The notes under the pieces are model-generated. The model made no database searches and was not told where the DNA came from. It was given only the letters and a program-made list of their open reading frames with translations. A stretch of DNA of 43,741 nt, taken from the sequence record NC_019724.1, one strand, 5' to 3'. Source of the stretch: Escherichia phage HK578. This document shows positions 7,543 through 40,594 of the stretch, piece after piece; the stretch's first letter is position 1; each line of letters starts with the position of its first letter. The translations under genes were made by a program, and so were the position numbers.

Positions 7543-7557
7543 CAGGCGCACATCCCA

Positions 7558-11435: not shown

Positions 11436-11503
11436 AATAAGGTTTGTTTTAAATTCGCTGATACAATGTCAACCGGCAACTGCATAAAAAGGGGGACTGC
11501 ATA

Positions 11504-21630: not shown

Positions 21631-23472
21631 ATGGCAGCGGGTACACTATCCGTAACGAATAACAGCAAGGCGGTTGTCGGTGTAGGAACGACGTTTACCG
21701 CGTTTAATGCTGGCGACTTTTTATCGCTGGTAGTCGGGCAAGTGCCCTACACTGTTGCGATCGCGTCCGTCGAAAGCGACACCGCGCTTACGTTGGTGCT
21801 GCCGTTCGACGGCCCAACGGCAACTGGCCTCGCGTGGGATGGCGTTAAGCGCGATACCATGTCGCTGGCAACGATGGGTGTAACCGTACAGGCACAGAAA
21901 GCGTTGCGCTTGATGATCGCGGACGAAAACAACTGGCGCGCAATCTTCGGAGACGAAGAAGAGATCACGGTAACGCTGCCGAACGGGCAAGTTATGCAGG
22001 GTATGTCGTGGGGCTATCTGTCGCAATTGCTGAAGGAAGTTGACCCCGTTGAAATGCGCAACCTGCAACAACAAGCCACTACCGCGAAGAACGACGCCGT
22101 TACCGCAAAGAATCAAGCCGTTACCGCGAAGAACGACGCCGTTACCGCGAAAACGGGCGCGGAGACGGCGCGCGACCAGGCTAATACCGCAAAGACCGGT
22201 GCAGAGACGGCGCGCGACCAGGCTAATACCGCGAAAACGGGCGCGGAGACAGCACGGGATCAATCGCTGACTTACCGTAACCAGGCCGAGCAATTTGCTA
22301 ACAGCGTTAATCCGGATAACATTCTGGATCAAGTCGGTGTTGGTGCAAACCCGCGGCACTTACCGGATATTAACGCGCCTGTGAAGGGATTCTGCCGTAT
22401 TATCGCGGGTCAAACCGCGGGGGCGAATGGGTTTAGCGGGGCGGGATGGATCGCCGGTTACGACGGCAGCCAGTCTTATACCGGTATGTTTGTGCAGCCC
22501 GACGGTAACCGCATTTTCGCAGGCGGAAAATCACCAGCTATCGCTGGCGGGTTGTGGCAGTGGCATGAGGTGCCGACTATAGATCGAGCTAATACATTTA
22601 CGCAATCGCAAGAAATTTTAGCGTCATACCCGGGCCTTGAACTGACAACAACCGCGCTCAATAACAACAATCTAGGGAAGACAATCCTTATTGAAAATGA
22701 TGCGGGCGATGCTCTTAACTTTTTCTACAAGATGCTCGACGACGACACGGGACGTTACACCATTAGACTACCGAAGCCTGGGTATAAGACGACGATGACG
22801 ATCGGGCTTGACGGAGGGTTGGCTCCAAACGGCAACTCGTTTAACATCGGTGCCGTTCAAGGATTGGACTTCAGTGTCGGGCAGCAAGGGTGGCGCGCGG
22901 TGGGCGGTGCGTGGACTAATGGCCCAACCAGCGGCAATCTGTTCGGGGCAGTATTCACCCATGCGGTGCAGGGTCTGAATGTCGGGGGGTATGACGCTAA
23001 TGGCACGGATAACCACTGGTTTATACAGCGCTTTTACGACACGTCGGCGAATATCTTTACGCGCGTGCAAGTGAACGACTACCCGTGGGGTAACTGGTAT
23101 AAAGTCACCACGTCCGCTGTGTCGGATGAACGCCTGAAGGATATCAAGGGCAATCTGAATGTGGAGGGTGCGCTGGATAACATCAACCGCATGGAGTTTA
23201 AACTGTTCTCGTTTAAAAATGAGAAGTCAGAAAGCAAACAGCCTGTTACGCGTCGCGGTGTTATCAGCCAGCAGATCCGTCTTATTGATAAAGAGTACAC
23301 AACGGAAGTAGGCGGATTCTACCACCTGGACCAGACCCCGATGTTGTTAGATGGTCTGGCGGCAATCAAGGCTCTGCGCGCGCGTGACGAAGCAAATAAA
23401 GCTGAAATCGCGGAATTGAAAGCTGCCGTGGCGGAATTGAAAGCTGCCGTAGCGGCGCTGTCTAAAGCATAA
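21631..23472 (+). CDS. tail fiber protein with C-terminal intramolecular chaperone (S74-like) domain
   Basis: ATG 21631 with SD GAGGA; nine TA(K/R)xxAx heptads; SDERLKDIKG motif near C-terminus (auto-cleavage signature of S74 chaperone domains); C-terminal AELKAAV repeats. Confidence 0.75.
   Translation: MAAGTLSVTNNSKAVVGVGTTFTAFNAGDFLSLVVGQVPYTVAIASVESDTALTLVLPFDGPTATGLAWDGVKRDTMSLATMGVTVQAQKALRLMIADENNWRAIFGDEEEITVTLPNGQVMQGMSWGYLSQLLKEVDPVEMRNLQQQATTAKNDAVTAKNQAVTAKNDAVTAKTGAETARDQANTAKTGAETARDQANTAKTGAETARDQSLTYRNQAEQFANSVNPDNILDQVGVGANPRHLPDINAPVKGFCRIIAGQTAGANGFSGAGWIAGYDGSQSYTGMFVQPDGNRIFAGGKSPAIAGGLWQWHEVPTIDRANTFTQSQEILASYPGLELTTTALNNNNLGKTILIENDAGDALNFFYKMLDDDTGRYTIRLPKPGYKTTMTIGLDGGLAPNGNSFNIGAVQGLDFSVGQQGWRAVGGAWTNGPTSGNLFGAVFTHAVQGLNVGGYDANGTDNHWFIQRFYDTSANIFTRVQVNDYPWGNWYKVTTSAVSDERLKDIKGNLNVEGALDNINRMEFKLFSFKNEKSESKQPVTRRGVISQQIRLIDKEYTTEVGGFYHLDQTPMLLDGLAAIKALRARDEANKAEIAELKAAVAELKAAVAALSKA
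22081..22263 (+). repeat. in-frame tandem repeats inside tail fiber gene
   Basis: 3 x 21-nt units (TAKNDAV / TAKNQAV) followed by 3 x 42-nt units (TAKTGAETARDQAN), nearly identical at nucleotide level. Confidence 0.8.
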
Positions 23473-23476
23473 CGAG

Positions 23477-23499
23477 AAGGGGCCATGCGGCCCCTTTTT
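23477..23499. terminator. bidirectional intrinsic terminator
   Basis: AAGGGGCC-atgc-GGCCCCTT followed by TTT; between convergent tail fiber (+) and early leftward operon (-). Confidence 0.7.
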
Positions 23500-24073
23500 A
23501 GTTTGAGTTTTCCCAATCCATTTTGCGCCGCACCAGCGGGCTTTCGTAATATTCCTTCCCATCCACTTCCACTAAGGGCCAGTCGTTCACTATAACGTAT
23601 GGCTCCGCGATATCCTCAATCACGCCGTGCGCGCTATGTTGTCCGAAATCTACGCCCACCAGGATAACACCGGCAACGCGACGGGTGAGGTATTCGCGAG
23701 CGCAACGGGCCTCGACCAGTCCGCGACGGATGCCGCTGGTAGCTTTGACCTCGTAGGTCCAGACGGCATCAATCATATGTTCTCGGAAGTCGGGGCCGGA
23801 CTTAACCTTGCGTTTACCGACCATGATAATATCTCCGCGGTCGATAGTGTTAGCGCTAAACAGGCCGGTACGCATTAGCAAACCTTGCGGGATACAGCTA
23901 CGCCCGCCTGCCTGCCCTTCGAGGTACATGCCAGCAAACATTTCGCCTAGCACACCTACGAGTCTGCTTTGCTTGCACGCGTCAGACTTGTATCGCCACT
24001 GGTCAAACTCGATGCTTGCTATCATTGCCGCCAGGTGGAATTGTTTACCGGTTATTTCGTATTCGCCGTACAT
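23498..24073 (-). CDS. hypothetical protein, possible PD-(D/E)xK-type nuclease
   Basis: 191 aa; segment IDAVWTYEVKAT fits a D...ExK arrangement; weak, motif-only. Confidence 0.4.
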   Translation of the reverse strand: MYGEYEITGKQFHLAAMIASIEFDQWRYKSDACKQSRLVGVLGEMFAGMYLEGQAGGRSCIPQGLLMRTGLFSANTIDRGDIIMVGKRKVKSGPDFREHMIDAVWTYEVKATSGIRRGLVEARCAREYLTRRVAGVILVGVDFGQHSAHGVIEDIAEPYVIVNDWPLVEVDGKEYYESPLVRRKMDWENSN

Positions 24074-24115
24074 CGTGTGGTACTCATTGATGCGGGCCGA
24101 AGCCCGCGATTAGAA

Positions 24116-24658
24116 TTATTTAAGTGCGCCAGTCACCAGTGTTTTTTCCATGTTACGGAAATCTTCCTGCGTCATGCAGATTTTCGATCCGTCTTCGCCG
24201 GTGAGCACGACCATAGCCTGCACATCTTGTGCCTCGACGCCCTTAACCGTCTTGCCGAAAGAGGCCACCGTGTCCTCCGCAACTCGAATTGCGCTGTTAT
24301 ACGCATTAATCTCACCGTCGAGACGCATGGACAGGCCTTTGAGGCTGTCGAATTGTGCTGCCGTTGTATCGATCTGAATCTCATCATGCACGGTCATGTA
24401 CGACTCGCCCAGCAGGGAGGCATACGCCACCAGATCCACGATGTTATCTTCCTGGTGCTTACGGTGCTGGCGCACCAGCTTCAGGCAGATCAGGAAGGTC
24501 CAGGCTTCTTGCTCGGACAGGTCGCGCCCGGTAAGCGCGTTAAACACGGCGGCGATCTGTTTAGCGCTGCGTTCTTCTTTCGCGTTGTCATAGCCGTTTT
24601 CTTTCCCGCGCTGTTCCATAGTGGTGGCGGCGTTTTTACAGTATTCGTATGCTTTCAC
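24116..24658 (-). CDS. hypothetical protein
   Basis: 180 aa, GTG start with SD AAGGG; preceded by promoter-like element and 5'UTR hairpin GGGGGC-gataca-GCCCCC. Confidence 0.5.
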   Translation of the reverse strand: MKAYEYCKNAATTMEQRGKENGYDNAKEERSAKQIAAVFNALTGRDLSEQEAWTFLICLKLVRQHRKHQEDNIVDLVAYASLLGESYMTVHDEIQIDTTAAQFDSLKGLSMRLDGEINAYNSAIRVAEDTVASFGKTVKGVEAQDVQAMVVLTGEDGSKICMTQEDFRNMEKTLVTGALK

Positions 24659-24705
24659 AGTATTACCCTTTTTAGCGAGGGGGCTGTATCGCCCCCGACA
24701 CGTTT

Positions 24706-24735
24706 ACTATAGTGCAACCAACCTATTGGTTGCAA
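24706..24735 (-). promoter_or_regulatory. sigma70-like promoter overlapping palindromic operator-like site
   Basis: minus strand TTGCAA-18 nt-TATAGT; embedded perfect inverted repeat TGCAACCAA-ccta-TTGGTTGCA (24713-24734). Confidence 0.4.
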
Positions 24736-25193
24736 GTGAATTTTGCAACGTTTATTGCGTAAATTTTCGGGACCAAATCACCACACGCCCGACGAATCGC
24801 CGCGATGTTCTTCTCGCAATCTTCAATGATGACCAGTTCAGACACGTCCGCGTAGCAGACCATTTTGAACACGGCGCACGCCTTAAACTCTGGCGGCGGG
24901 GTGTCATCCAGCATGTGGCGCATAAACAACCGGCCTACGGGGAAGACCTCCAATTGCTCGGCGGTGGTGTCCCAACATTCTCGCTGCCGGTTGGTCAGAT
25001 ACGCGATCTCGAAGCCTTGCTCTTTATACATGTGCAACAACGGCAACATATCCATGTTCAGGTCTTCGCGGACGTGCGCCTTGTGCCACTTCGCCCAAAA
25101 GGTGGATTTAGTTTTTATACCCGGCACCAGGTCGGCGCGCGCATCGCTTGAACCGTTAATAACGCCATCCAAATCGCAAATCAGTAATTTCAT
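24723..25193 (-). CDS. HAD-superfamily phosphatase (nucleotidase-like)
   Basis: N-terminal DLDGV (HAD motif I), YLTNR (motif II), IIEDCEKN (motif IV); SD GAGGAA. Confidence 0.7.
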   Translation of the reverse strand: MKLLICDLDGVINGSSDARADLVPGIKTKSTFWAKWHKAHVREDLNMDMLPLLHMYKEQGFEIAYLTNRQRECWDTTAEQLEVFPVGRLFMRHMLDDTPPPEFKACAVFKMVCYADVSELVIIEDCEKNIAAIRRACGDLVPKIYAINVAKFTCNQ

Positions 25194-25414
25194 TTCAATT
25201 CCTCAATAAGGGTGGCTCGGGCGCTGCGCGCGGTGTAAGAGTTGCACACGAAATGACAACGTCGGGTAATGACAAGCCACCCGGTAAGGTCCATACCAAG
25301 GAGGTGTTCTGGCCGTGACACGCGACGCACACGATCGCGGCGCGGGTCGATGTTATAGTCTTTTTGCATTTGGTCTACGACCGCGTGGTCGCGGTCAACG
25401 ATTAAGATATTCAT
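25190..25414 (-). CDS. hypothetical small protein
   Basis: 74 aa from ATG 25414 (MNILIVDRD...); overlaps the Dam 3' end by ~20 nt; start uncertain. Confidence 0.35.
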   Translation of the reverse strand: MNILIVDRDHAVVDQMQKDYNIDPRRDRVRRVSRPEHLLGMDLTGWLVITRRCHFVCNSYTARSARATLIEELK

Positions 25415-25880
25415 GTAGCTCACTCTCGCTCATTATTTCAATTTGTGCGCTGCCGGTGGGCGGCGCTTCGTCAAATATTATCAATTGCTGGCACTTGTTA
25501 TTGCTCGGCCCGACTTCACCGGTCACAGCATGTATAAATCGGATCCGCCAGTCCAGAAGAATTATCAGGTTTGCAGTCTTCCGGGCCAGCTTCGCCCACT
25601 TCGTCGACGTGTCCTGATTCAGTAGCATGACGGTCCGGCGTCCGTGCGCTGCACACTCGACCCACGGCAGCGGATCGGAATACGGCGGGTTGCACCACTT
25701 CCACCCTTTCAACTCTGACCAGTCCACTTCAAGCGCGCTGTGCTCTGCCGTGAAGTAACGCGGTAGCAGGTGGTTGTCATCGCTCGCCGCCATGTCATAA
25801 CGGAATCGGTACTTCCGGCGCAGCGGTTTAAATAAAGCTGGCGGCGTGCACCAGCTATCTTTTTGCTCATTCTTCGACAT
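25395..25880 (-). CDS. DNA N6-adenine methyltransferase (phage Dam family)
   Basis: ATG 25880 with SD GGAGA; motifs DMAASDDNH and WCNPPYS characteristic of phage Dam-type amino-MTases. Confidence 0.8.
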   Translation of the reverse strand: MSKNEQKDSWCTPPALFKPLRRKYRFRYDMAASDDNHLLPRYFTAEHSALEVDWSELKGWKWCNPPYSDPLPWVECAAHGRRTVMLLNQDTSTKWAKLARKTANLIILLDWRIRFIHAVTGEVGPSNNKCQQLIIFDEAPPTGSAQIEIMSESELHEYLNR

Positions 25881-25899
25881 CTCACTGTCTCCAGGTATT

Positions 25900-25924
25900 A
25901 AAAAGGGCGTCCAACCGGACACCC
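25900..25924 (-). terminator. intrinsic terminator / attenuator inside early operon
   Basis: minus strand GGGTGTCC-ggtt-GGACGCCC followed by TTTTT, located between promoter-like element and Dam RBS. Confidence 0.5.
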
Positions 25925-25926
25925 TC

Positions 25927-25955
25927 AATATAATGCAGCCAATCTAGTTATGCAA
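25927..25955 (-). promoter_or_regulatory. sigma70-like internal promoter
   Basis: minus strand TTGCAT-17 nt-TATATT; overlaps direct repeats TGCAGCCAAT (25934-25943) and TGCAACCAAT (25951-25960). Confidence 0.4.
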
Positions 25956-25960
25956 CCAAT

Positions 25961-26284
25961 TTACGCATAAAAATTTGGGTCGCGCGCTACGTCTACCAGA
26001 TACAGGTTGCTCATGCGGTTGCCGTAGTGCCCAGGCGTGCGCTGGCGACACACAACGGCGAAGCCTGGAGGGATTGTATTGCCTGTCTCAATAATCCACG
26101 CCACGCGTGCGCCAGACAGCGTCTTGCCGTTGTATTCGATGCGCGTGCCCCCATCGGCAGTGTTAAGGTTGCCAATCTTACAGCCTGTGGACTTCAGGCG
26201 AATGACACCGGTCTTGCTGTCGTAGGAAAAAAGCTGATTGGTCATTGCCACTGAAAAGTCGATTGCGTCGAATGCAGTATTCAT
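25961..26284 (-). CDS. HNH_3/AP2-like domain protein (catalytic status unclear)
   Basis: 107 aa; segment order DGGTRIEYNGKT / ARVAWIIETG / GNRMSNLYLV resembles HNH_3-type homing endonuclease domains but the usual His positions are not obviously conserved. Confidence 0.4.
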   Translation of the reverse strand: MNTAFDAIDFSVAMTNQLFSYDSKTGVIRLKSTGCKIGNLNTADGGTRIEYNGKTLSGARVAWIIETGNTIPPGFAVVCRQRTPGHYGNRMSNLYLVDVARDPNFYA

Positions 26285-26976
26285 TTTAAATTTTCCTCGT
26301 TAACCGCTATCGCGAAGCCGCGCGGGGTGAGTGAGCGGATTAATTTTGTACGAGCGGATTTACCACCGAGGCGACTATACTGCTTCGAGTACCCTTTTTC
26401 AACGAAAACAGGTTTCTTCTCGGGCATACGGAAGCCGTTTCCAGTCCATAAGCAGGTCAGCTTCGGATATGAATCGCGGGCGTTGATGTATTCAGGGAAG
26501 AGCGGGTGTACGTCATCCTCTGGCAGATATCCGCCATACTCCCACGGGTCAAACGAGTGGTCCGGCTTACGCCACTGGGTGGAAAGCACGCTGCGCGGAT
26601 TCTCAATCATATATGGCACTTCGAAGAAATCACCCAGGTAAGCTGCGATCTTCGCGGTGCGCACCGCCTTAAGCTGGAAGGCAGGGTCGCGGGCGCGTTT
26701 GCGCGGGAAAGCTGGCGCACCGCTAACCGCCAGATCCGTACACGGAGGGAATGCGTAAATGATATCCGGCGTGCCGAAATCGCCATTCATAGCGCGGGCC
26801 ACGAAGTCCAGGTCTATAAACTCATTACGATAGCGGATCCCGCGCCCATAAATCCGGTAGTCCAGGTACGACCCGTGATCGGCTTCGGAGTAGTTGAAGC
26901 AGTAACACTTATGCCCCATCTCGGCAGCACGCTCAATCATCAAGCCGCTGCCGTCGAATAATGACCAGATAATCAT
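26281..26976 (-). CDS. C5-cytosine methyltransferase-like protein (compact)
   Basis: 231 aa; motif I-like LFDGSG (res ~7), PPC (res ~78, PCT rather than PCQ), ENP (res ~126) with C5-MTase-like spacing; too short for a typical target recognition domain. Confidence 0.5.
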   Translation of the reverse strand: MIIWSLFDGSGLMIERAAEMGHKCYCFNYSEADHGSYLDYRIYGRGIRYRNEFIDLDFVARAMNGDFGTPDIIYAFPPCTDLAVSGAPAFPRKRARDPAFQLKAVRTAKIAAYLGDFFEVPYMIENPRSVLSTQWRKPDHSFDPWEYGGYLPEDDVHPLFPEYINARDSYPKLTCLWTGNGFRMPEKKPVFVEKGYSKQYSRLGGKSARTKLIRSLTPRGFAIAVNEENLK

Positions 26977-28397
26977 TTGCGCGCCTTTTTAGCTTTCATG
27001 TATTCCATTAAATCGTCCTGAATATCGCGCTTACTGTCGCGACGTTCGGCGACCAGTTCATCCAGTGTGCCGCGAGCCTGGATAATGTAGACGAATACTG
27101 GACGAGGGTGCCCGGCTTGCATCTGGCGAACTGGCCCGATACGCTCCACGATCTGCGCAAAGTGCTCGTAGTTCCAGGTGTCTGAGAAGATAGCAAGGTG
27201 GTGTCCGCCATCCTGCAAGTTAAGGCCGTGACCCGCCGATGCCGGGTGCGCAAACATGATGGGGATCTCGCCCCTGTTCCACGCTTCCATATCCTTATTT
27301 CCTTGCTTTCCCTTACCCATCGCTACGCCGTGCGGGAATTTCTTCTTAAGACGTGCCAAGTCATGCTTGTACTGGTACGCGACGAGCAACGGTGCGCCGT
27401 TCAACTCCTCCACGATACTTTCCAGCGCGTCCAGTTTAGCGTCGTGGATTTTCACCCATTCGTCGGTGCGCTCGCCGTCTTCGTCGACTTTATACACGGC
27501 CCCTGAAGCAAGCTGAAGGCACTTAATAGTCTTCGACGCAGCGTTCGCCGCCTCCACAGTTCCGCTTTCCAGTTCGGCAAATAGCTCCGCTTCGAACTGG
27601 TCATAAATCTTGCGGGCTTTCTTCGGCAGGTCCACAACAACCGGCGTATAGATTGGCTTGTCACATCCGAAGTATTCAGCCGCATCAACTGTGAGCGACA
27701 CGTCGGACAGGCGTTGTTGTATTTCTTTCTCGGAGTTCTTAAGCGGGGCGTGCTGCATAGTGAAGCTGCCAGGCTTAACAGGCTTGCTAATAAACCAGCG
27801 ATCCGTGAATGCCTTATAGCTACTGCCGAGGCGTTCGCCACCATCGACAAACCACGTCTGACCCCACAGGTCTTTCAGTCCGTTTGGTGCGGGTGTGCCG
27901 GTTAGGTTAATCCAGCGCTTGACGTGCTTGTGAGCAATCGCCGCCAGCGCACGGGCGCGCTTACTTCCCTGCTTGCTTCGATAGCCTTTCAGCTTAGTCG
28001 ATTCATCGGCAACCACGACCGTAAAGGGCCACTCGTCGCCGCAATACTCAACAAGCCACTCAACTACATCATAGTTAATACAAACCACGTTAGCGTCGCT
28101 CTCAAGCGCAGCGATGCGGTCCTTCTCCGACCCAGTGCCATCTACTACCAGCAAGGCGGGGAAGCGCCATTTTTCCTGCTCTGGGGGCCATGTACCGGAC
28201 GCAACGCGCAGCGGGGCCAGCACCAGTACGCGGTCCTCCTGGTTGGACAGGATGCCGGTCTGGAACATTTTATTCAGTGCCCACATAGTCGCGCCGGTTT
28301 TGCCCGACCCCATTGTCGCCCATATATTGCATCGCTTATGCTTGAGGATGAACGCGGTTATCAATTTCTGATATTCGCGACGTCGGAATCTTGCCAT
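26973..28397 (-). CDS. SNF2-family helicase
   Basis: Walker A MGSGKTG, motif II VVADEST, motif III LTGTPAPNGL; start taken at ATG 28397 (MARFRRREYQ...), longer ORF to 28487 possible. Confidence 0.8.
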   Translation of the reverse strand: MARFRRREYQKLITAFILKHKRCNIWATMGSGKTGATMWALNKMFQTGILSNQEDRVLVLAPLRVASGTWPPEQEKWRFPALLVVDGTGSEKDRIAALESDANVVCINYDVVEWLVEYCGDEWPFTVVVADESTKLKGYRSKQGSKRARALAAIAHKHVKRWINLTGTPAPNGLKDLWGQTWFVDGGERLGSSYKAFTDRWFISKPVKPGSFTMQHAPLKNSEKEIQQRLSDVSLTVDAAEYFGCDKPIYTPVVVDLPKKARKIYDQFEAELFAELESGTVEAANAASKTIKCLQLASGAVYKVDEDGERTDEWVKIHDAKLDALESIVEELNGAPLLVAYQYKHDLARLKKKFPHGVAMGKGKQGNKDMEAWNRGEIPIMFAHPASAGHGLNLQDGGHHLAIFSDTWNYEHFAQIVERIGPVRQMQAGHPRPVFVYIIQARGTLDELVAERRDSKRDIQDDLMEYMKAKKARK

Positions 28398-28401
28398 ATC
28401 T

Positions 28402-28620
28402 TTATTCCGCCTTTTTCCAGACTTCTGTCTCACTGTTCCAGTTCCTTTTTGTCGCGTCGTAGTTGGTGGCGTGTCCGATGTGCACACCAGTAGCCCGGAA
28501 GCTCTTAAATTTTTGCCAGCACACCGTCAACGGCAGCGGGTAATTCATGCCCGCGATAAACCATACGCGATCGCCTGGTTTGCATTCGCCCAGTGTGGTA
28601 AGTCGGTAGTGTTCTTTCAT
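28402..28620 (-). CDS. hypothetical protein
   Basis: 72 aa from third ATG (MKEHYRLTT...) 7 nt after GGGAGA; alternative starts up to 28635. Confidence 0.4.
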   Translation of the reverse strand: MKEHYRLTTLGECKPGDRVWFIAGMNYPLPLTVCWQKFKSFRATGVHIGHATNYDATKRNWNSETEVWKKAE

Positions 28621-28663
28621 CGTCATGTCTCCCAAAAATGGCGGGACAAGCCCGCCGTATTAA

Positions 28664-28837
28664 TTATTTTTGCGCTGCGCGGTAGCGGCGCTGCCGTTCG
28701 CGCTCTTTCTTATTGCGGCATGATTTGCACTCGGCACGATACCCATCGGGGCTGCGCGCAGTTTTGCCGGTGTATTTATGGAACTGGGACAGCGGTTTAA
28801 CACAACCGCAATTACTGCAGCGTTTTTCTTCAATCAT
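28664..28837 (-). CDS. small zinc-ribbon protein
   Basis: 57 aa from ATG 28837 with SD GAGGA; CxxC...CxxC (CSNCGC ... CKSC) and basic C-terminus. Confidence 0.45.
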   Translation of the reverse strand: MIEEKRCSNCGCVKPLSQFHKYTGKTARSPDGYRAECKSCRNKKERERQRRYRAAQK

Positions 28838-28877
28838 TTCTAAAATCCTCGTTAGTGCTAACCTGCTCACTATACTG

Positions 28878-29156
28878 TTAAGCGACCAATTCAGCAACCA
28901 ATAAATCACAGTCGGCTATGTTGTCGATAACGCGAACGTCCGCACCGCGGCGGGCCATTCGCTCATGTTCTCGTACCTGGTGCGGCTTCGGTTTGCCGCC
29001 GGGGCGCTTCACTTCGACGAAAACTATCTTGCCGTTGATGATGATTATAAGGTCTGGCGCTCCCGCGCGCCCCTCCCATGCCACTTTACGGCAGAATCCG
29101 CCGACGGCTTTAACCAACTTCATAAGGTGACTTTGGATCTTGCCTTCTGGTGTCAT
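28878..29156 (-). CDS. VRR-NUC domain nuclease
   Basis: PD-(D/E)xK signature PDLIII...GKIVFVEVKRPGGKPKPHQ; start at ATG 29156 with SD GAGGAA. Confidence 0.75.
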   Translation of the reverse strand: MTPEGKIQSHLMKLVKAVGGFCRKVAWEGRAGAPDLIIIINGKIVFVEVKRPGGKPKPHQVREHERMARRGADVRVIDNIADCDLLVAELVA

Positions 29157-29485
29157 TGTGCGTTCCTCACTCGGCATATCTCACCCGCAATATGCCCGAT
29201 TAAATACGCCATAACCTCCTGGTTGTGGAGGTCCGGCGCAACCCCCCGGTCCCTCATGAGATTCATTGCTACGTGGGTGGCCTCATGAGCAACCGTGTGC
29301 ATACTTGCGGTGTGTGGCATCCATACAAGGCATGTTCCGTTGCCGAAAACGACGAAGGCATTGGCCTTAAAATCATCGATGCCAGGTTGATACCCGGTTA
29401 TCCGCTTGCATTTTGCCGCCACCTCGTCAGCGCATGGCGAGACAAAAAATTCATATCTATAAACGTCTACTTTTACTTTTTTCAT
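29153..29485 (-). CDS. putative zinc metallopeptidase (HExxH)
   Basis: 110 aa from ATG 29485 with SD AGGAAG; HEATH motif (VAHEATHVAMNL); family not assigned. Confidence 0.5.
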   Translation of the reverse strand: MKKVKVDVYRYEFFVSPCADEVAAKCKRITGYQPGIDDFKANAFVVFGNGTCLVWMPHTASMHTVAHEATHVAMNLMRDRGVAPDLHNQEVMAYLIGHIAGEICRVRNAQ

Positions 29486-29489
29486 AGTC

Positions 29490-31781
29490 TTACTTCCTGT
29501 AGCGATACATAACATCGCCCTCTGCGGCAAGCGGGAAGCCTTTCGCCCAAATAGGCAGGTCGCACATCAGCGCGCACAACTCCTCGGTTGTGTAGTCGTC
29601 AGTATCCGGCACTTCGGTGATCAATTCATCGTGTACGGACAGTACGATCTCATACCCCGCAGCTTCAACACCCGGCATGGACCATGCGAGGATATCGCGG
29701 CACAGCGCCTGCACGATGTTTTCCGTCAGTTTGCCGCCGTAGGTGTACTGGAATCCCCACTGGCGCGTCGTCTGATTCTCACCCTGATATTTAATGCGGG
29801 TGCTGGTGCGCTTCTTGCCGGTATCTTCGTCGATCTCGGTCGTCACTGACAGCGCAATGCCTGGATAACTCATAATACGCCCCGACGGCAACTCAATTTT
29901 CAACCACCACCCCGCGGCGTTCGGGTCGTCGCGCTCCTCGTCGAAGGTTGGGTCGTGCTTCGCCTTCGTGCGCACAATCTTGAGCGCTTTTCTACCGTCC
30001 GGGCGAACGTTCGCGCCAGCCCAGTATGCTTTGCCCGGATTGCGGATTGCACACAACACCGCGTCCTCAAGCTCGGCCCAAAATGCTACCGTCTTCGGGT
30101 GCGACTCACGCCACATACGTTTGATCGCATCACACGTCAGCCATACGTTTTTCGGCAGTATGTAAGTTGGGCGCTCGTCCTTCTTGCCAGGCTTCGGCGG
30201 GCGCTTCGCTTCGTTAATGCGGGCATATTCATAACCCCGTTTCGCCGCCGCCCAAATGTGATCGGGGAATGTGCCCTTCATCACTTCAGCCATCGCGTAA
30301 AGGTCAAGGCCCAGGTTTTTAGCGAACTGCAAGAACGCGGCAACGCCACCTCCATAGCCCAACCCCAATTCGCACGCCTTACCAATCTGGCGCAAGTCTT
30401 TGCGGTTGGCTTTAATGTATTCCGGGTCGAGGCCGAACATCTTACCGGCAGTTTCACAATAGATATCGCGTCCGGCCTTAAACACCATTAGCGCGGTTTT
30501 CTCGCCAGCGATCCAGGCGAGGCCACGCCCTTCCACGTTGGAGTAGTCCGCTACGACAAACTTCTTACCCTTCGCCGGAATAATGCACCCGCGAACAGTC
30601 GAGGCCGTTAGCTTCGATATGTCATACGCCCAGTGCGCTGTCCCGCGTAACAGGGAGTTGATGCCGTTGGTGAGCATGTGCGACCGCACCCAAAACGCTA
30701 CGTCGCTCTCGCCTTCACGGCGTTTAATCTTCCCTTCGTGGTCGTCGCTATACTCGCCGCGTGCCAGGTTTTGAGGCTGAAAGCCTTTACCGGCCCAGCG
30801 TAGCGTGCGCTTTGCGCCGCCATACTGGAGACACCCACGGCGGCGACCATCGGCGGATAGACCATTCACAAGCGGATTGTACTTAGTCGATGCCGTTGAT
30901 GACGCACCGAGGCGCATCTCGATAAGCACTTTGCCTTCGTCGGGGAAGTCTGGGTCTTCAAGCAGGTCGTTAAGCGTGGATTTCTGTGCGTTGTGGATTG
31001 TGAACGCAGGCGCGAGGTCGCGCAGCGCGGGCAAGAAGTCATTGCCGGTTAGCTTACCCCCGAAGCGCTCCCAGGCTTCTTCCTTCAATTCTTCCTTATG
31101 CGCTTGCACCGCTTTGATCGCGGCGTTCGCCAGGTCAACGTCCACGTAGAAGCCGCGGTCATTGATCAACTGGTCAATAAGCAGGATTTCGTCTTCCTTC
31201 GGCGTGTTGCCCCAGTCCGGTATGCGCCAATAGACTTCCCTCATAGCGATGATATCCAACGCGGCATAGCGCAGGAATTTGGCCCATTCTTCAGGGTGAG
31301 TCTCGCGGGTGTAGCGGCGGATTTTGTAGGTCTTAGGGGTAGGCTTACAGAATCGTTTGATCAGCGCCTTGCCAGCCTTATCCTTCGCGTGATCTGCGTC
31401 AACGCCCAGCACCTGGCACTGCATATCGAGACTACCCGGCAACGCGTGTCGAAAGGCCATAATCATGGTATCTTCGATCTGGCACACTGGCAGGTCAATG
31501 CCCCACTTCTCGCGAATGACCAGGCGGTCAAACAGGAGGCCGTTAGCCATCACGATTTTTGCTTTCTTGCGGGATACCCGGCGGAGCGCCTTGCGCAGTT
31601 CACGCGGCATTGTGGGGGACTCGGTGCAATCCCAGGTCTGTACGCGGCCCTCGTCGATGGCATAGGTGCAGATCATAATCTCGGTTGTCGGGTGCTCTGC
31701 GTAGGCGTATGCGCCCACTTTCTTCAGATCCACCCCGCTAAATGTCTCGGTATCGAGAAACAGGCGTTCGAAGTCTTTCAT
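29490..31781 (-). CDS. DNA polymerase, family A, with 3'-5' exonuclease domain
   Basis: 763 aa; Exo motif FLDTETFS; motif A-like DYSNVEGRGLAW, motif B-like RQIGKACELGLGYGGG, motif C VLSVHDELI. Confidence 0.9.
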   Translation of the reverse strand: MKDFERLFLDTETFSGVDLKKVGAYAYAEHPTTEIMICTYAIDEGRVQTWDCTESPTMPRELRKALRRVSRKKAKIVMANGLLFDRLVIREKWGIDLPVCQIEDTMIMAFRHALPGSLDMQCQVLGVDADHAKDKAGKALIKRFCKPTPKTYKIRRYTRETHPEEWAKFLRYAALDIIAMREVYWRIPDWGNTPKEDEILLIDQLINDRGFYVDVDLANAAIKAVQAHKEELKEEAWERFGGKLTGNDFLPALRDLAPAFTIHNAQKSTLNDLLEDPDFPDEGKVLIEMRLGASSTASTKYNPLVNGLSADGRRRGCLQYGGAKRTLRWAGKGFQPQNLARGEYSDDHEGKIKRREGESDVAFWVRSHMLTNGINSLLRGTAHWAYDISKLTASTVRGCIIPAKGKKFVVADYSNVEGRGLAWIAGEKTALMVFKAGRDIYCETAGKMFGLDPEYIKANRKDLRQIGKACELGLGYGGGVAAFLQFAKNLGLDLYAMAEVMKGTFPDHIWAAAKRGYEYARINEAKRPPKPGKKDERPTYILPKNVWLTCDAIKRMWRESHPKTVAFWAELEDAVLCAIRNPGKAYWAGANVRPDGRKALKIVRTKAKHDPTFDEERDDPNAAGWWLKIELPSGRIMSYPGIALSVTTEIDEDTGKKRTSTRIKYQGENQTTRQWGFQYTYGGKLTENIVQALCRDILAWSMPGVEAAGYEIVLSVHDELITEVPDTDDYTTEELCALMCDLPIWAKGFPLAAEGDVMYRYRK

Positions 31782-31948
31782 TGCTTAATCCTCACTACGG
31801 CGTCGGTGCTGCCGATCATGGAGAAGATACCGTCGGAAAGGGTTATCTCCTCGCCGTTGTTGCGAATCTCGGTAACGATGAAATACTCGCCCAGCGTTTT
31901 GGACCATACTCGCATTCCGACTTTTACTTCGCTGGCTTTAATACGCAT
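31778..31948 (-). CDS. small hypothetical protein (not in ORF track)
   Basis: 56 codons (MRIKASEVKVGMRVWSKTLGEYFIVTEIRNNGEEITLSDGIFSMIGSTDAVVRIKQ), SD AGGACA, stop overlaps polymerase start (ATGA). Confidence 0.4.
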   Translation of the reverse strand: MRIKASEVKVGMRVWSKTLGEYFIVTEIRNNGEEITLSDGIFSMIGSTDAVVRIKQ

Positions 31949-31964
31949 TTTTCATTGTCCTATT

Positions 31965-31988
31965 AAAAAGCCCGCATTAAGCGGGCTT
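31965..31988 (-). terminator. intrinsic terminator / attenuator between SSB-like gene and polymerase block
   Basis: minus strand AAGCCCGC-ttaat-GCGGGCTT followed by TTTTT. Confidence 0.5.
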
Positions 31989-32006
31989 GAATAGTGGGCT
32001 TCGCCC

Positions 32007-32729
32007 TTAACGGCGGCGACGTTTACGTGGTGCTTCGTCTTCGTCGTCTTCGTCCTCATCCTCATCGTCGCGCGGCTTACGACGTTTACGAGGTTTTTCA
32101 TCTTCGTCATCATCGCGGCGCTTGGACTTTTTGGACTTGCGCGGGCTTTCATCTTCGTCATCATCGCCCAGGTCTTCGTCGGAGCAAGAAGACCCGCCAC
32201 CGCCGAAGGCTTCACCGTCATCACGGAAGCGTAAACCCAGCAAGCCAGCACCGAGTCCCTTGCCGTTGGTATTGTTCCACGCCCAAATATCCAAGGACAC
32301 GTTGCAATAACAACCGGAGTAGATCTCCTGGCCTTCGATCTCGTCGCCTTCTACGGTCAGACCTTGTTCCGTCTGCTTCTCGCCGAGTGACGTTTGAATG
32401 ACCGGCTGTTTGAACGATTTGGCGTTGATGTACAACATGCCTTCGAATTCTTCGGTTACTTCGTCGCGCTCGTCACCGTCGCGAACTGCGCATTCCTTAG
32501 AATCCTGGGCGTAGTGGCGGTCCATCCACTTATCAGCATTCTTCTCGGATTTCAGCTTGTCGGTGAGCACTGCGCGCGCTGCCGCTTCCACTTTGTCCAC
32601 CTGCGGGTCTTCTTTATCAAGAAGAATCACTGCGCGGTATGCCGGTTTTTGTCCATCCTGTTTAGGGGTATCACGTTCCCAAATTTTAAGGAAACATACG
32701 CGCACATTTTTCAGGTTGACTTTAGCCAT
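32007..32729 (-). CDS. ssDNA-binding protein-like (DUF2815-type)
   Basis: ATG 32729 (MAKVNLKNVRVCF...) with SD GAGGAA; family assignment from memory of the N-terminal pattern and co-occurrence with exonuclease and PolA; highly charged C-terminal tail. Confidence 0.5.
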   Translation of the reverse strand: MAKVNLKNVRVCFLKIWERDTPKQDGQKPAYRAVILLDKEDPQVDKVEAAARAVLTDKLKSEKNADKWMDRHYAQDSKECAVRDGDERDEVTEEFEGMLYINAKSFKQPVIQTSLGEKQTEQGLTVEGDEIEGQEIYSGCYCNVSLDIWAWNNTNGKGLGAGLLGLRFRDDGEAFGGGGSSCSDEDLGDDDEDESPRKSKKSKRRDDDEDEKPRKRRKPRDDEDEDEDDEDEAPRKRRRR

Positions 32730-32793
32730 TTTCCAATTCCTCATTTTACATGTATCGGGGTTATTGTAAGCCACCCCGTTCGGCTTGGTTGCT

Positions 32794-32822
32794 AATCTAC
32801 TTGGTTGCGCCTAAGCGGTCAA
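32794..32822 (-). promoter_or_regulatory. sigma70-like internal promoter
   Basis: minus strand TTGACC-17 nt-TAGATT; direct repeats TTGGTTGC at 32785-32792 and 32801-32808. Confidence 0.35.
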
Positions 32823-32833
32823 GCACTTTTTTA

Positions 32834-34261
32834 TTAATTTTTTAAATCCTCGTCAGTAGCTTCAGACCACGCGGGGCGCGGGTCGTCGATAGGTGCTAAC
32901 ACCGGTTTAGCAGGTGCGCGCGTGATTTTATCACACAGCTTCGCCCACACTTTCGGTTTTTCGTCCTTCAGCACCTTCTCGGCATCTGTTGGGCTGAGCA
33001 ATGTTTCTTTGTACATCACATCGCGCTTGATCCGGGCCTTCGTGAATATTTCAATCACTTCGCTCTCGTCCGCCCACTTCCGGATCCCTTCCTTGCCTGC
33101 AACCATCTTGAGGCCCAGCGATTCGCCATCCCCAGCCATTACCGCTTTGAATACCGCGGACTCGATAGCTTTGATGTGCTGGCGCATTGCGTCCAGACCT
33201 TCATAAGCCTTGCGCAGTTCCGCCGCGCTCATAGCACCGGGGGCCGCTTCTTTCTTGCCCCGTTTAGCACGTCGTGCCGCCTTGCGGGCTTCGCGGGCCA
33301 TATTGAGGCCGTGGTTGGCGCATTCTTCCGCTGTCGCAATACTCTCGTCGTCGCCCAGGTCTTCGTCGGTTGCCGTTGGTGGTGTCATCGTATCGATTGC
33401 AGCCTTCGCCCTGGCGCTACACTGGTCCGCAAATCTGCACCACTGGCACGCATCAACGCTGGGGCGGAAGTCGGCACGGGTAAGCCCCTTCTTGCCGCGG
33501 GTGTACGCATCGAGAGCGGCGATAGCACGCTTGGACGCAAACTTCGCGAATATCTCCAGCGCTTCTACCGAAATATCCCACTCCGACGCCCCGCCGCAAT
33601 ACGGCTGGAAGATAACCAGGCGCACGGTCGTAATGTCGTACATAGTTTGCAGCTTGCGTAGCAGGCCCAGCGCGTACAACATAAGCTGTTTGTTTTCTTT
33701 TGCCTCGACCTTATGCCGCCCGGTCTTCAGGTCGCCAACAATCAGCATGTACGTGCCGTCGGTCTTTTTCATTACCATGGCCATATCGGCAGTACCGAAC
33801 GTTTTAATCCTGTTGCCGTCGCTCTCGAATCCTGAATGAAGGACGCGGGTCAGATCGGCGCGCATCTCAAGCTGAACAAACTCCGCCACTTCGAGGAGCG
33901 GTCGCCAGTGGTCGATGTACGCGTCGCACTGTTTCACCATGTCGTCGTTGACCAGTACGCCGCCTTTCGGTGCTTTCGGGTGGGCCTTTACTGGCCCCTT
34001 GCCTTCGTTCTCGACGTAGCACCCTTTATACGTCTTCGCGGTTATCAGCTTCTCCCCGGCGATAATGCGGTTTAGCACCACTTCAGATACGGTGTGCATA
34101 CTCGTACCGTTAATCGCCGCTTGCCCGGATTCGTTAGGGATATCTTTTTCCACCACCAGGGCGGCGGGGCAACCCATCCATTTTTTAGCACCGGACGGGC
34201 CGAGTAATGAGTGTTCCGTGTTGCTACCGGATTGCGTTTTACGTTTTGGTTTAATCGCCAT
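32834..34261 (-). CDS. RecB/Cas4-like exonuclease (DUF2800-type PD-(D/E)xK nuclease)
   Basis: 475 aa; nuclease motifs GTADMAMV, IVGDLKTG, QLMLYALGL and C-terminal Cys cluster CQWCRFADQC (Fe-S-type); adjacent to SSB-like and PolA genes. Confidence 0.7.
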   Translation of the reverse strand: MAIKPKRKTQSGSNTEHSLLGPSGAKKWMGCPAALVVEKDIPNESGQAAINGTSMHTVSEVVLNRIIAGEKLITAKTYKGCYVENEGKGPVKAHPKAPKGGVLVNDDMVKQCDAYIDHWRPLLEVAEFVQLEMRADLTRVLHSGFESDGNRIKTFGTADMAMVMKKTDGTYMLIVGDLKTGRHKVEAKENKQLMLYALGLLRKLQTMYDITTVRLVIFQPYCGGASEWDISVEALEIFAKFASKRAIAALDAYTRGKKGLTRADFRPSVDACQWCRFADQCSARAKAAIDTMTPPTATDEDLGDDESIATAEECANHGLNMAREARKAARRAKRGKKEAAPGAMSAAELRKAYEGLDAMRQHIKAIESAVFKAVMAGDGESLGLKMVAGKEGIRKWADESEVIEIFTKARIKRDVMYKETLLSPTDAEKVLKDEKPKVWAKLCDKITRAPAKPVLAPIDDPRPAWSEATDEDLKN

Positions 34262-34440
34262 TATTCCACCCGTGTAAACTGGACAATTACATATTTCACA
34301 TTAGCCATGCCCGCTTTTTCGACGCGGCGCTTAACTTCATTTTGTGCGTCAACAAAGCAATTGCTTGCGTTGGTGTTTTCAACAATAAAAGAGCAATGGT
34401 CGTCTAATTCGTGGCATGTTGCCATCACGAAGAATTTCAT
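34261..34440 (-). CDS. small Cys/His-containing hypothetical protein (not in ORF track)
   Basis: 59 codons (MKFFVMATCHELDDHCSFIVENTNASNCFVD...); start overlaps upstream stop and stop overlaps exonuclease start (TAATG both sides). Confidence 0.4.
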   Translation of the reverse strand: MKFFVMATCHELDDHCSFIVENTNASNCFVDAQNEVKRRVEKAGMANVKYVIVQFTRVE

Positions 34441-34691
34441 TATTTCGTCTCCCAGCGGTCAATCGTTCTTGCCTCGGATGCAACTGCGAAGCGAACATAT
34501 TCCAGATTGGAATCTGCCCAAATATAAAAGTCGGGATTAGTAAAGGTGGTGCGCTTAATTTGCGCGGGGGTATTGCGGCGTTTATCTAATACGGCAACGC
34601 GTGACTGAAAGCCGCCGATGCGTTCGAATAGCCAATAGCACGGGCGCTGGTCGCGGGAATCCACCGCCTCGATTAATGTAAATCGTGCCAT
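34440..34691 (-). CDS. hypothetical protein
   Basis: 83 aa, ATG 34691 with SD GAGGA, preceded by terminator-like hairpin. Confidence 0.5.
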   Translation of the reverse strand: MARFTLIEAVDSRDQRPCYWLFERIGGFQSRVAVLDKRRNTPAQIKRTTFTNPDFYIWADSNLEYVRFAVASEARTIDRWETK

Positions 34692-34704
34692 TGTCTCGTC
34701 CTCT

Positions 34705-34731
34705 AAAAAGAGGCCCGCAGATTAGCGGGCC
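34705..34731 (-). terminator. intrinsic terminator / attenuator
   Basis: minus strand GGCCCGC-taatct-GCGGGCC followed by TCTTTTT, between first and second genes of the leftward operon. Confidence 0.5.
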
Positions 34732-34739
34732 GGATAATA

Positions 34740-35171
34740 TTAGTCTTCCAGTTCGAAATAAGTTTCGACGATTTCTTTCAGGTCTTTGTGGAAGTCTTCC
34801 ACGTCGTCGTCTTCCAGTTTAGCGATTGATTTGATCTCGAACGCTTCCAGCAGGTCGTCAAATTCGTCGTTCGCGTCGTCGTCATCGCCCCCGGCGATAA
34901 TCGCGGCATACTGTTTGATCTCGTCGCGCATCTCTGCCAGCGGATCGGCATCTTTCTTACCTTTGCCTTTCGCCGTGGCTTTTTTACCTTTCGCCGGTTT
35001 TTCGTCTTCGGCTTCTCCATCGTCGTCATCTTCTACGACTTCTTTTTTGGCCTTAGACGGCTTCTTGTCTTCCTGCTTATCAACGGCAGCGCCAACGGTT
35101 TCATAATGCTTAGCGATGGTTTCCAGTGCTACTACGCCGCGAGTAATCAGGTTTACGATTTGTTCAAACAT
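34740..35171 (-). CDS. acidic hypothetical protein (first gene of early leftward operon)
   Basis: 143 aa from ATG 35171 (MFEQIVNLITRG...) with SD GGAGA; upstream part of track ORF to 35399 is treated as 5'UTR. Confidence 0.5.
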   Translation of the reverse strand: MFEQIVNLITRGVVALETIAKHYETVGAAVDKQEDKKPSKAKKEVVEDDDDGEAEDEKPAKGKKATAKGKGKKDADPLAEMRDEIKQYAAIIAGGDDDDANDEFDDLLEAFEIKSIAKLEDDDVEDFHKDLKEIVETYFELED

Positions 35172-35367
35172 GGTGTATCTCCAATTGGTTAAGTTTAGGT
35201 GTCGGCAGTAAACTTCGTCGGTGGCCTTAACATATTGCCAGGTTACGCGTTCTCCCTTTCGGGTAGTGGACCTGGTTATATAATCACGGTTGGGAATCCT
35301 GACACTTCGATCCGGCCCCTGCGTTGCCCCTCTCCAGTTTGCGTCCTGCATCCTGTCGACGAGGTGA

Positions 35368-35396
35368 ATATTAGATTGGTTGCAGAAGGGAGTCAA
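35368..35396 (-). promoter_or_regulatory. early leftward sigma70-like promoter
   Basis: minus strand TTGACT-17 nt-TAATAT; ATTGGTTGCA (35375-35384) lies in the spacer. Confidence 0.5.
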
Positions 35397-35407
35397 CAAC
35401 TAATTTC

Positions 35408-35441
35408 AAAAAAAAAGCGCCGAGGCAAAATGCAACGGCGC
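35408..35441 (-). terminator. minus-strand intrinsic terminator in divergent control region
   Basis: minus strand GCGCCG-13-nt loop-CGGCGC followed by nine T; would stop antisense transcription entering the leftward promoter. Confidence 0.45.
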
Positions 35442-35512
35442 TAACCAATAAGAGACAATGAGACGGGAATTATTATTACACGCGCGCGCGCCCGTTTCAA
35501 TATCCAAAGGAG

Positions 35513-35541
35513 TTGACACTGTTTATTTTTAAGCATAGTAT
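35513..35541 (+). promoter_or_regulatory. early rightward sigma70 promoter
   Basis: TTGACA-17 nt-TAGTAT, 33 nt upstream of ATG 35575. Confidence 0.55.
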
Positions 35542-35574
35542 GCGACCCGCACCCCGAACACACGAGACACAGCA

Positions 35575-36003
35575 ATGAGCACAAACGAGACCTTAAATCG
35601 CTGGAACCATAAGAAATGGCCCCACCAAATTAACCGCGCCACCGAGGATGATAATACCATCGCTTTCGGCGATATGGACGCGGACCCTATGACCCCTGAG
35701 CAAATAGCCGCCGATGTGCTGTCAATGGACCGACATACGGCTTCGGAAATAATCGTTGCTCTGATAAACGAAATAAGCGGCAGCTATAACGAACTGAATG
35801 ACCTGTACGCGGAGCTTGACCTGTTGAAAGGTGGCGCTATCGCAGCGGTGCGTAAATCCGAAGAGGCAGCACGCGAGATGGCTATCGCCCGCGAGAAATA
35901 TATGCCTGTCGTTAAGCGCCTGCGTGCGGAAGGCTTGTCATGGAATCAGATCGCCGAGATGACTGGAATCAACCGTTCTACAATCCGCCAGTGGGCTAAA
36001 TGA
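35575..36003 (+). CDS. putative HTH DNA-binding regulator
   Basis: 142 aa; C-terminal helix-turn-helix LSWNQIAEMTGINRSTIRQWAK; first gene downstream of the rightward promoter. Confidence 0.55.
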   Translation: MSTNETLNRWNHKKWPHQINRATEDDNTIAFGDMDADPMTPEQIAADVLSMDRHTASEIIVALINEISGSYNELNDLYAELDLLKGGAIAAVRKSEEAAREMAIAREKYMPVVKRLRAEGLSWNQIAEMTGINRSTIRQWAK

Positions 36004-38347: not shown

Positions 38348-38539
38348 GTGAATAGTTATGCAGTTTTATTGCATAAAGCAAGCGGGACAAAAAGCGGGAC
38401 AGACCAGGGGCGGGACAAAGCGGGACAGCACCCCCTGTCCCGCCCGGCTGGCGCGGCTCTCAGAGGAGCGGGACAGGCGGGACAAACCCCAGTCTTTCAG
38501 ACTAGACGGGGGGTCAATGGCCCCCCTCGTCTGAGACTG
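38348..38539 (+). repeat. ~190-bp dispersed repeat, copy B (GGGACA iterons + hairpin)
   Basis: seven GGGACA/TGTCCC copies at 38384-38484 and hairpin 38490-38539; homologous to 11246..11435. Confidence 0.75.
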
Positions 38540-38698
38540 CATAAAATCCCGGATTGCATAATACACGGCAGCATGTTGCGGATTGCGGTCGTCGCTGAAC
38601 TAGGCAACCAATGCGAGTTGCAGAATGGTGGGTGAAAAATGCAGTTTGCAGTCACAGCAGATAGCGATCAACTTTTTCATGCGCGTGATTAATATTGG

Positions 38699-40575: not shown

Positions 40576-40594
40576 ATATGCAAGCGTGATATAG

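Follow-up and report, generated by a model that had tools for sequence, protein, structure and literature searches.

Whether the hairpins between the genes of the leftward early operon of Escherichia phage HK578 grade the expression of its replication proteins, and whether they do so under regulation, was the question raised by positions 23,477 to 35,441 of record NC_019724.1, which was analysed as one stretch of 43,741 nucleotides (nt), here called the window. An initial annotation, made from the letters alone, had proposed that five terminator-like hairpins, some of them followed by internal promoters, mediate regulated read-through or RNA processing along the operon. The hairpins were found to be real and conserved, and they are part of an ordinary modular 'transcripton' architecture that is largely annotated already in congeners. 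It is likely that leaky terminators and internal promoters split the replication operon into overlapping expression modules, and regulated rather than constitutive read-through is not supported.

Hairpins were checked by reading of the minus strand, by folding against shuffles (free energy, dG, and z score, z) and by a genome-wide stem-loop scan, and sites were lettered a to j in the direction of leftward transcription (Table 1). All five hairpins named in the initial annotation were recovered on the minus strand, each in a gap between co-directional minus-strand genes, with U-runs at 34705-34731, 31965-31988 and 25900-25924 and none at 24679-24696 or at the UUCG hairpin, whose approximate coordinates had been off by 4 nt. 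The fold free-energy calculation that had been suggested as a check agreed with these assignments (b, d, g and h in Table 1). Terminators a and f and hairpin c had been absent from the earlier list. Stem-loops a, b, d, f, g and j, as well as c, h and i, were all GC-rich (dG -10.5 to -18.2, z -2.1 to -6.0). A U-tract 3' of the stem was found at a (nine U's) and at b, d, f and g (five each), and the placement was intergenic, on the sense strand and conserved. The GC-rich stems of b, d, f and g comprise 6-10 base pairs (bp) with the five U's directly abutting each stem, and the U-runs of the operon hairpins are confined to the minus strand; on the plus strand, the tails are not T-rich. By these sequence features, b, d, f and g are classical intrinsic terminators, and c, h and i, because they have no U-run, were not classed as such. 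The description of terminator-like hairpins placed before genes thus held for b, d and g; the other two of the five were U-less stem-loops not classed as terminators, and hairpin h follows an internal promoter.

Among the sense-strand hairpins with dG <= -10 in the operon, 6 of 11 fell into the non-coding 4.1% (binomial P ~2e-6). The 18 gene junctions of the operon were of two kinds: at ten the genes overlap or lie 4 nt apart, and the remaining eight are gaps of 37-104 nt. Seven of these eight gaps contain a hairpin with or without a promoter, namely a terminator at b, d and f, a promoter plus terminator at g, a promoter plus hairpin at c and h, and a hairpin at i; the eighth, at e, contains a promoter only. 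Outside the operon, the genome-wide scan placed sense-strand intergenic U-run hairpins after the genes for the major capsid protein (7557-7584) and the major tail protein (10394-10410), and further ones at 40593, 42063 and 43653.

The position of the terminators relative to the genes carries the argument for read-through. Stem b begins 8 nt past a stop codon and its U-run ends 13 nt before the next ATG; terminator d lies between the gene of the single-stranded DNA (ssDNA)-binding protein and a gene of 56 amino acids (aa) followed by DNA polymerase, and ends 16 nt before the next ATG; terminator f ends 7 nt before the next ATG, with the helicase gene downstream; and terminator g ends 19 nt before the next ATG. 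The space after b, d and f (7-16 nt to the ATG) holds a Shine-Dalgarno sequence only, and no promoter-like site was detected after these three terminators in a consensus scan. Since no promoter fits between b, d or f and the start codon, the exonuclease, the polymerase and the helicase are transcribed by read-through only, as a logical need of the layout. Internal promoters had been said to follow some of the hairpins, and here the order is reversed: promoter-like sites precede c, g and h. As to regulated read-through that grades expression, the read-through itself is required and a graded expression is plausible, and the regulation came without an N, Q, boxA or put signature.

The arrangement suggests the following mechanism, in which promoters are sequence predictions and all start sites were derived from spacing to the -10 box only. 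Host sigma-70 RNA polymerase would transcribe the leftward operon as overlapping modules, a long transcript from P_L2 reading through the four moderately strong terminators b, d, f and g. Terminators follow genes whose products are probably required in large amounts (the first, acidic protein, the ssDNA-binding protein and the small zinc-finger protein) and directly precede the Shine-Dalgarno sequences of the presumed catalytic blocks (exonuclease, polymerase, helicase, methylases); partial, constitutive termination would step expression down, and the catalytic proteins would come from the read-through fraction. The tracts of b, d, f and g, with five U's and then A or G, do not reach the nine U's of terminator a, which is consistent with such a leak. 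At b and f, ribosomes may promote it. While terminating, a ribosome occupies about 7-8 nt past the stop codon, and transcription-translation coupling can lower termination; as stems b and f start 8 and 7 nt past the stop codon, respectively, part of the stem would be covered.

The internal promoters c, e, g and h would add short transcripts that boost single genes. The ssDNA-binding protein gene, flanked by promoter c and terminator d, would form a self-contained cassette with them. At g, the terminator sits directly after the -10 box of promoter g, which ends 1 nt before the stem, and the predicted start (~25920) lies inside the 5' arm of the stem. Promoter-g transcripts, starting inside the stem and being without its 5' arm, could not form the hairpin and would escape terminator g, where upstream transcripts would stop. 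Terminator a, ~25 nt past the predicted P_L1 start and upstream of the operon promoter P_L2, has the putative role of insulating P_L2 and the leader described below from upstream transcription. The succession of P_L1 and terminator a would yield an RNA of ~56 nt, or only insulate P_L2.

On the minus strand at 34702-34715, CCUCU-UUUU-AGAGG can pair, with the last two C's of stem b, the U-run as loop and the Shine-Dalgarno sequence of the next gene; this is a possible translational occlusion in transcripts reading through terminator b. An alternative antiterminator pairing of the riboswitch or leader-peptide attenuator type was not found at b, d or f, and no Rfam family matched. Because coding sequence runs to within 7-18 nt of these stems, there is no space for an attenuator sensor.

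Table 1 Positions of the operon elements, genes and related sites in the window (promoters and transcription starts as predicted; dG and z from folding against shuffles)
Feature	Position	Strand	Description
Control region	35400-35550		between two divergent transcription units
Rightward promoter	35513-35541	plus	back to back with P_L1
First rightward gene	35575-36003	plus	C-terminal helix-turn-helix (HTH_23, E 6e-7); sigma-70 region-4-like matches
Promoter-like site P_L1	35472-35500	minus	TTGAAA, 17-nt spacer, TG-extended AATAAT; 10/12 consensus matches
Terminator a	35408-35442	minus	stem AGCGCCG...CGGCGCU, then nine U's; dG -16.4, z -4.6; conserved
Operon promoter P_L2	35368-35396	minus	TTGACT, 17-nt spacer, TAATAT; one GCAACCAAT motif in spacer
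Structured leader RNA	35211-35359	minus	149 nt; ~+1 to +150 of operon transcript
Leftward unit	35171 to 23498	minus	replication module
First operon gene	34740-35171	minus	acidic 143-aa protein, phrog_3127
Terminator b	34705-34731	minus	stem 34712-34731 GGCCCGC-uaaucu-GCGGGCC, then UCUUUUU ending 34705; dG -17.5, z -3.9
Gene after b	34691-34440	minus	83 aa
Internal promoter c	32794-32822	minus	TTGACC-17-TAGATT; two GCAACCAAG motifs
Hairpin c	32756-32778	minus	CGGGGU...ACCCCG, no U-run; ~+10 to +33 of ssDNA-binding-protein mRNA
ssDNA-binding protein gene	32007-32729	minus	Enc34_ssDNA-bd (formerly DUF2815), E 2.3e-31
Terminator d	31965-31988	minus	hairpin 31968-31988 AAGCCCGC-uuaau-GCGGGCUU; U-run 31969-31965; dG -18.2, z -6.0
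Gene after d	31948-31778	minus	56 aa
Internal promoter e	28869-28897	minus	TTGCTG-17-TATAGT; direct pair of ATTGGTYGC; overlaps VRR-NUC gene end
Terminator f	28634-28656	minus	GGCGGG-cuugu-CCCGCC, then AUUUUU
Gene after f	28626-28402	minus	74 aa
Internal promoter g	25927-25955	minus	TTGCAU-17-TATATT; two ATTGGYTGC motifs
Terminator g	25900-25926	minus	stem-loop 25903-25926, U-run 25904-25900; dG -17.7, z -5.3
Internal promoter h	24706-24735	minus	TTGCAA-18-TATAGT; spans inverted motif pair
Hairpin h	24679-24696	minus	GGGGGC-gauaca-GCCCCC, no U-run; z -3.5; ~+4 to +22 of promoter-h transcript
Hairpin i	24092-24107	minus	GCGGGC-UUCG-GCCCGC, no U-run; 8 nt past stop codon, 18 nt before last gene
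Terminator j	23474-23499	both	bidirectional; meeting point of leftward and rightward units
ATTGGTTGC sites	5515/5529, 21606, 24714/24725, 25935/25952, 28882/28894, 32784/32800, 35375, 38287/38322, 38694/38725, 42100/42123		probable regulator-binding motif
Operon genes 1-4		minus	acidic protein (phrog_3127); two small proteins; DUF2800/PD-(D/E)XK exonuclease
Operon genes 5-8		minus	Enc34-type ssDNA-binding protein; 56-aa protein; DNA polymerase I; protein without assigned function
Operon genes 9-12		minus	VRR-NUC; Lar-like zinc-finger protein; 74-aa protein; helicase
Operon genes 13-19		minus	Dcm; HNH; Dam; 74-aa protein; HAD phosphatase; DUF6378; 191-aa protein
~195-nt direct copies	11246-11440 and 38348-38544	plus	80-94% identical to each other

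Conservation was assessed at two distances. Region 23400-35600 matched ~120 Dhillonvirus genomes at 91-94% nucleotide identity over 94-97% of its length (SSL-2009a, Henu5_1, PTXU06 and WFI among them), and the window was ~93% identical to SSL-2009a; by this similarity, it is a near-complete genome of Dhillonvirus, a genus of virulent E. coli siphoviruses. A locus search with the ssDNA-binding protein gave only 5 loci, its acidic tail producing unspecific patterns, and GenBank records were used instead. All sites were kept in 12 of 12 Dhillonvirus loci, with invariant stems and with substitutions in the loops at b, c, d, g and j; P_L1 was conserved in the 12 loci as well. Hairpin h carried a compensated insertion in congeners (GGGGGC/GCCCCC to GGGAGGC/GCCUCCC), and hairpin i was invariant in 9 loci. 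The GenBank records of PTXU06 and WFI carry ARNold-predicted terminators at b, d, f, g and j, so that this part is already in public annotation.

At the greater distance, Serratia phage Otaku and coliphage K1H (both Guernseyvirinae; polymerase 65-71% identical at the protein level) have a syntenic module. At position b, both carry a hairpin of unrelated sequence after the first gene, with a clear U-run in Otaku and three U's in K1H. Position c was occupied by a near-consensus promoter (TTGACA-17-TATAGT in K1H, TTGACA-17-TAAATT in Otaku) and then a U-less hairpin of different sequence ahead of the ssDNA-binding protein gene. At position d, where the ssDNA-binding protein gene gives way to the polymerase gene, a hairpin with a U-run was present, again of unrelated sequence. 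That positions b, c and d are kept while the sequence is replaced is strong evidence that they are functional.

The three hairpins without a U-run call for a separate account. The loop of hairpin c has 11 nt, beyond the usual 3-8 nt of terminators. Hairpins c and h most likely stabilise their promoter-initiated mRNAs as 5' stem-loops. For hairpin i, the most likely function is to block 3' exonucleases or to terminate weakly; we infer these roles from position and structure. The hairpin of the ompA 5' untranslated region is a 5'-terminal stabilising stem-loop, and c and h resemble it in being GC-rich, without U-run and within the first 5-35 nt of the predicted transcripts; unlike it, hairpin c begins ~10 nt from the predicted 5' end, past the classical protective distance.

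It could be supposed that all hairpins of the operon act in this manner, mainly after transcription, as 3' exonuclease barriers and 5' protective stem-loops for segments cut by RNase E, with little termination. This is unlikely. The conservation of c, h and i without U-runs, the extra-stable UUCG tetraloop of i and the location of c and h at predicted 5' ends would fit, but b, d, f and g have strand-specific, conserved U-runs abutting their stems, of which a stability element needs none, and these U-runs recur in distant relatives (clearly at Otaku b and d and at K1H d). Processing by RNase III, as one form of the RNA processing that had been suggested, did not hold up: substrates of this enzyme are duplexes of ~20 bp or longer, often with an internal loop, and stems of 6-10 bp are too short.

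The internal promoters share a short motif. The 9-mer ATTGGTTGC had 27 matches in the window at <=1 mismatch against 12 expected, and 0 of 100 shuffles reached 27. Mostly in pairs, it overlaps predicted promoters of both strands at the -35 box, the spacer or the -10 box. It is absent from P_L1 and from the rightward promoter at 35513, and promoter g has a third copy in one congener. ATTGGTTGC is probably an operator or activator site of a phage regulator. The helix-turn-helix protein encoded by the first rightward gene is the obvious candidate binder; some records label its product 'transposase'.

The modular design proposed here is known from other phages and from bacterial operons. In T1, and as discussed for TLS, 'transcriptons' have been described, i.e. 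modules of promoter, gene(s) and terminator with phage-specific intergenic repeats (PMC11447400). As in T1 and TLS, intergenic rho-independent terminators and sigma-70-type promoters bracket one or few genes in HK578, in dependence on the host polymerase, and, as in TLS, promoters are accompanied by a repeated motif that is specific to the phage and oriented with transcription. Unlike the 21-nt repeat of TLS, the motif here is the 9-mer ATTGGTTGC, usually paired and overlapping the -35 box or spacer, and, unlike in T1 and TLS, three terminators are without any following promoter. The E. coli operons rplKAJL-rpoBC and rpsU-dnaG-rpoD contain internal partial terminators (attenuators) between abundant and catalytic products; the common trait is an intrinsic terminator inside the operon with read-through supplying the downstream genes, and the phage operon differs in its setting, in having several terminators in series and in that its efficiencies are inferred.

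At the start of the operon, a structured leader RNA was identified. It is the one new item at the operon, bears on the read-through hypothesis and matters more than the hairpins. With Megablast, 52 nt of it (35284-35335) were 92-94% identical in unannotated gaps of unrelated Drexlerviridae phages. With a covariance model (R1), 32 copies were recovered at E <= 1e-20, and the window gave no match besides the leader. The element was found in six groups: Dhillonvirus; Changchunvirus and a related contig; Warwickvirus and Hanrivervirus; BUCT618-like; Jilinvirus-like; and Sortsnevirus phages. In every group the leader lies on the sense strand, ~7 nt past the -10 box, and in at least 3 groups its promoter is preceded, at ~50 nt, by a terminator. 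The 5' core of the leader hardly varies among the six groups, with flanking genes that show no detectable nucleotide similarity. The first genes after it show no relationship from group to group, or even among the members of one group, which argues for a role at the level of the operon and not of a specific gene.

The fold consists of a 5' hairpin (P1) with an invariant GGA loop and a three-way junction in which a long-range helix closes two stacked arms, one of them capped by a GNRA tetraloop in 5 of 6 groups. In the model alignment (A7), which was fitted to the covariance model and so favours the structure, 94.9% of cells were paired, 18 pairs changed on both sides, and the covariation score was 0.395 against 0.124 in shuffles (0 of 500 reached it) and <=0.071 with the partners slid. 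Compensatory changes are also visible in the raw sequence, both within Dhillonvirus (CCAGG/CCUGG, CCUGG/CCAGG, CCCGG/CCGGG) and in other groups (CAUGAU/AUCAUG, CUAUC/GAUAG, CAUUGG/CCAAUG). Folding of the whole leader with RNAfold gave an uninformative z of +0.6. A plain MAFFT alignment with RNAalifold missed the covarying helices, the variable arms being out of register, which was solved by anchored segments and the covariance model. For the long-range helix, an earlier pairing of GGGGCY with GGCY gave way to GGRGC with GCY-A-CC, an alternative from RNAalifold in which a true A-U to G-C swap occurs. A second CsrA-type GGA site in the core was weakened as a candidate, the G's being paired and one variant having GAA. 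A coding function of the leader was rejected, as the frame open from 35399 lacks conservation, lengths differ between groups by numbers not divisible by three, and the substitutions are paired. Open reading frames annotated across the leader in some records (e.g. PaulFeyerabend gp48) are thus not coding there.

Database searches returned no Rfam 15 match (window at gathering score; 35211-35352 at E <= 10), no BLAST match among 5,426 E. coli genomes, and a single match among 185,579 species-representative genomes, on a 42.7-kilobase (kb) contig that is probably phage; the core sequence was found in no paper of the searched literature. The leader is very probably a real structured RNA and appears to be a previously undescribed family; siphoviruses of at least six groups have it at +1 of early operons. 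It points to an interaction, as early transcription begins, with some conserved component of the host.

The leader also bears on regulated processive antitermination. In this reading, P_L2 polymerases would become terminator-resistant through the leader in cis or through an unrecognised phage protein and so pass b, d, f and g, and those that start at internal promoters would stop at the next terminator. We consider this improbable. Read-through of b, d and f is obligatory, and a strongly covarying RNA of 149 nt lies at +1, directly past the -10 box in every group and insulated upstream in several; putL likewise is located just downstream of its promoter (PMC9378689). As in lambda N/nut and Q/qut and HK022 put, there is an early operon with serial terminators to pass and an RNA element directly downstream of an early promoter, and the promoter-proximal terminator of the Q/qut type is present as P_L1 followed by terminator a. 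In contrast to these systems, neither an N nor a Q homologue was found: Pfam gave no N-family match among 30 proteins, small proteins without assigned function being among the operon genes, and Pfam and PHROG gave no Q-family match among the scanned proteins. No boxA in sense orientation occurred in the operon, boxB not being part of the search. With respect to HK022 put, the position after the promoter agrees, but homology, length and fold do not: a scan of HK022 with the leader model, filters off, gave no match (best E 1.2), and a three-way junction of 149 nt compares with two stem-loops of ~70 nt, i.e. about twice the length in a different fold.

The relatives speak against the leader as a terminator-passing device in three further respects. 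Guernseyvirinae keep terminators at positions b and d without having the leader; in BUCT618-type phages, an extended -10 promoter comes after the first terminator downstream of the leader; and in two groups no terminator is predicted in the 2.5-4.9 kb past the leader. A cis effect of the leader, exerted on the polymerase that transcribes it or on what becomes of the operon transcript as a whole, would make it a second, non-put, RNA-only processive antiterminator; this reading is given a quite low probability.

That the hairpins are chance GC-rich palindromes or DNA-level sites without a role in transcription is hardly credible and already contradicted by the comparative data: the loose consensus terminator scan gave a modest excess (26 sites vs 17.9 +/- 4.3 in shuffles), but strong hairpins are enriched in the non-coding part of the operon, U-runs are strand-specific, stems are conserved with variable loops and one compensatory change, and positions are kept across subfamilies despite replaced sequence.

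Several points weigh against serial leaky terminators with constitutive read-through. Every internal promoter bears the phage-specific ATTGGTTGC, so that a phage factor may be required for its activity or may repress it; just 8 of 12 consensus positions agree in promoters e and g, e being a weak call; a structured leader RNA heads the operon; and the searched literature yielded no Dhillonvirus transcript data, the start sites being predicted and the termination efficiencies presumed. If the modular reading is right, Dhillonvirus (and Guernseyvirinae at three positions) would set the ratios of replication proteins by serial leaky terminators and single-gene promoter cassettes. The hairpins alone matter little, the design being known; the gain is a corrected regulatory map for a coliphage genus that is common and finds use in therapy and engineering work.

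Gene identities were taken from Pfam and PHROG profile matches (Table 1). The two divergent transcription units that start from the control region converge at terminator j, whose stem starts 1 nt past a stop codon. The Lar-like zinc-finger protein has 57 aa, and its stop codon lies 7 nt before stem f. The small genes directly after terminators d and f overlap or sit within 4 nt of the polymerase and helicase genes, respectively, and the 83-aa gene after terminator b reaches the exonuclease gene via a further 59-aa gene. The 56-aa protein resembles the first post-leader protein of swan01-type phages, with a common EVKxGMxV motif and both ending in RIK. The gene slot between polymerase and VRR-NUC is variable: at 29153-29485 (minus strand) HK578 encodes a protein of 110 aa with an HExxH motif (phrog_1365), where SSL-2009a has a 63-aa gene.

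The two direct copies of the ~195-nt segment, one just past the primase-helicase gene and the other ahead of the tape-measure gene, contain many GCGGGACA iterons and end in a GGGGGG...CCCCCC hairpin flanked by inverted repeats; they could be origins, protein-binding arrays or a duplicated non-coding RNA. Two GenBank records, MG065648.1 ('Campylobacter phage A144') and OQ221563.1 ('Acinetobacter phage NJ01'), share 94-98% identity with E. coli Dhillonviruses, which makes their host labels doubtful. Tandem repeats of 21/42 nt were observed at 22059-22262 (plus strand), within the 622-aa tail-fibre gene.

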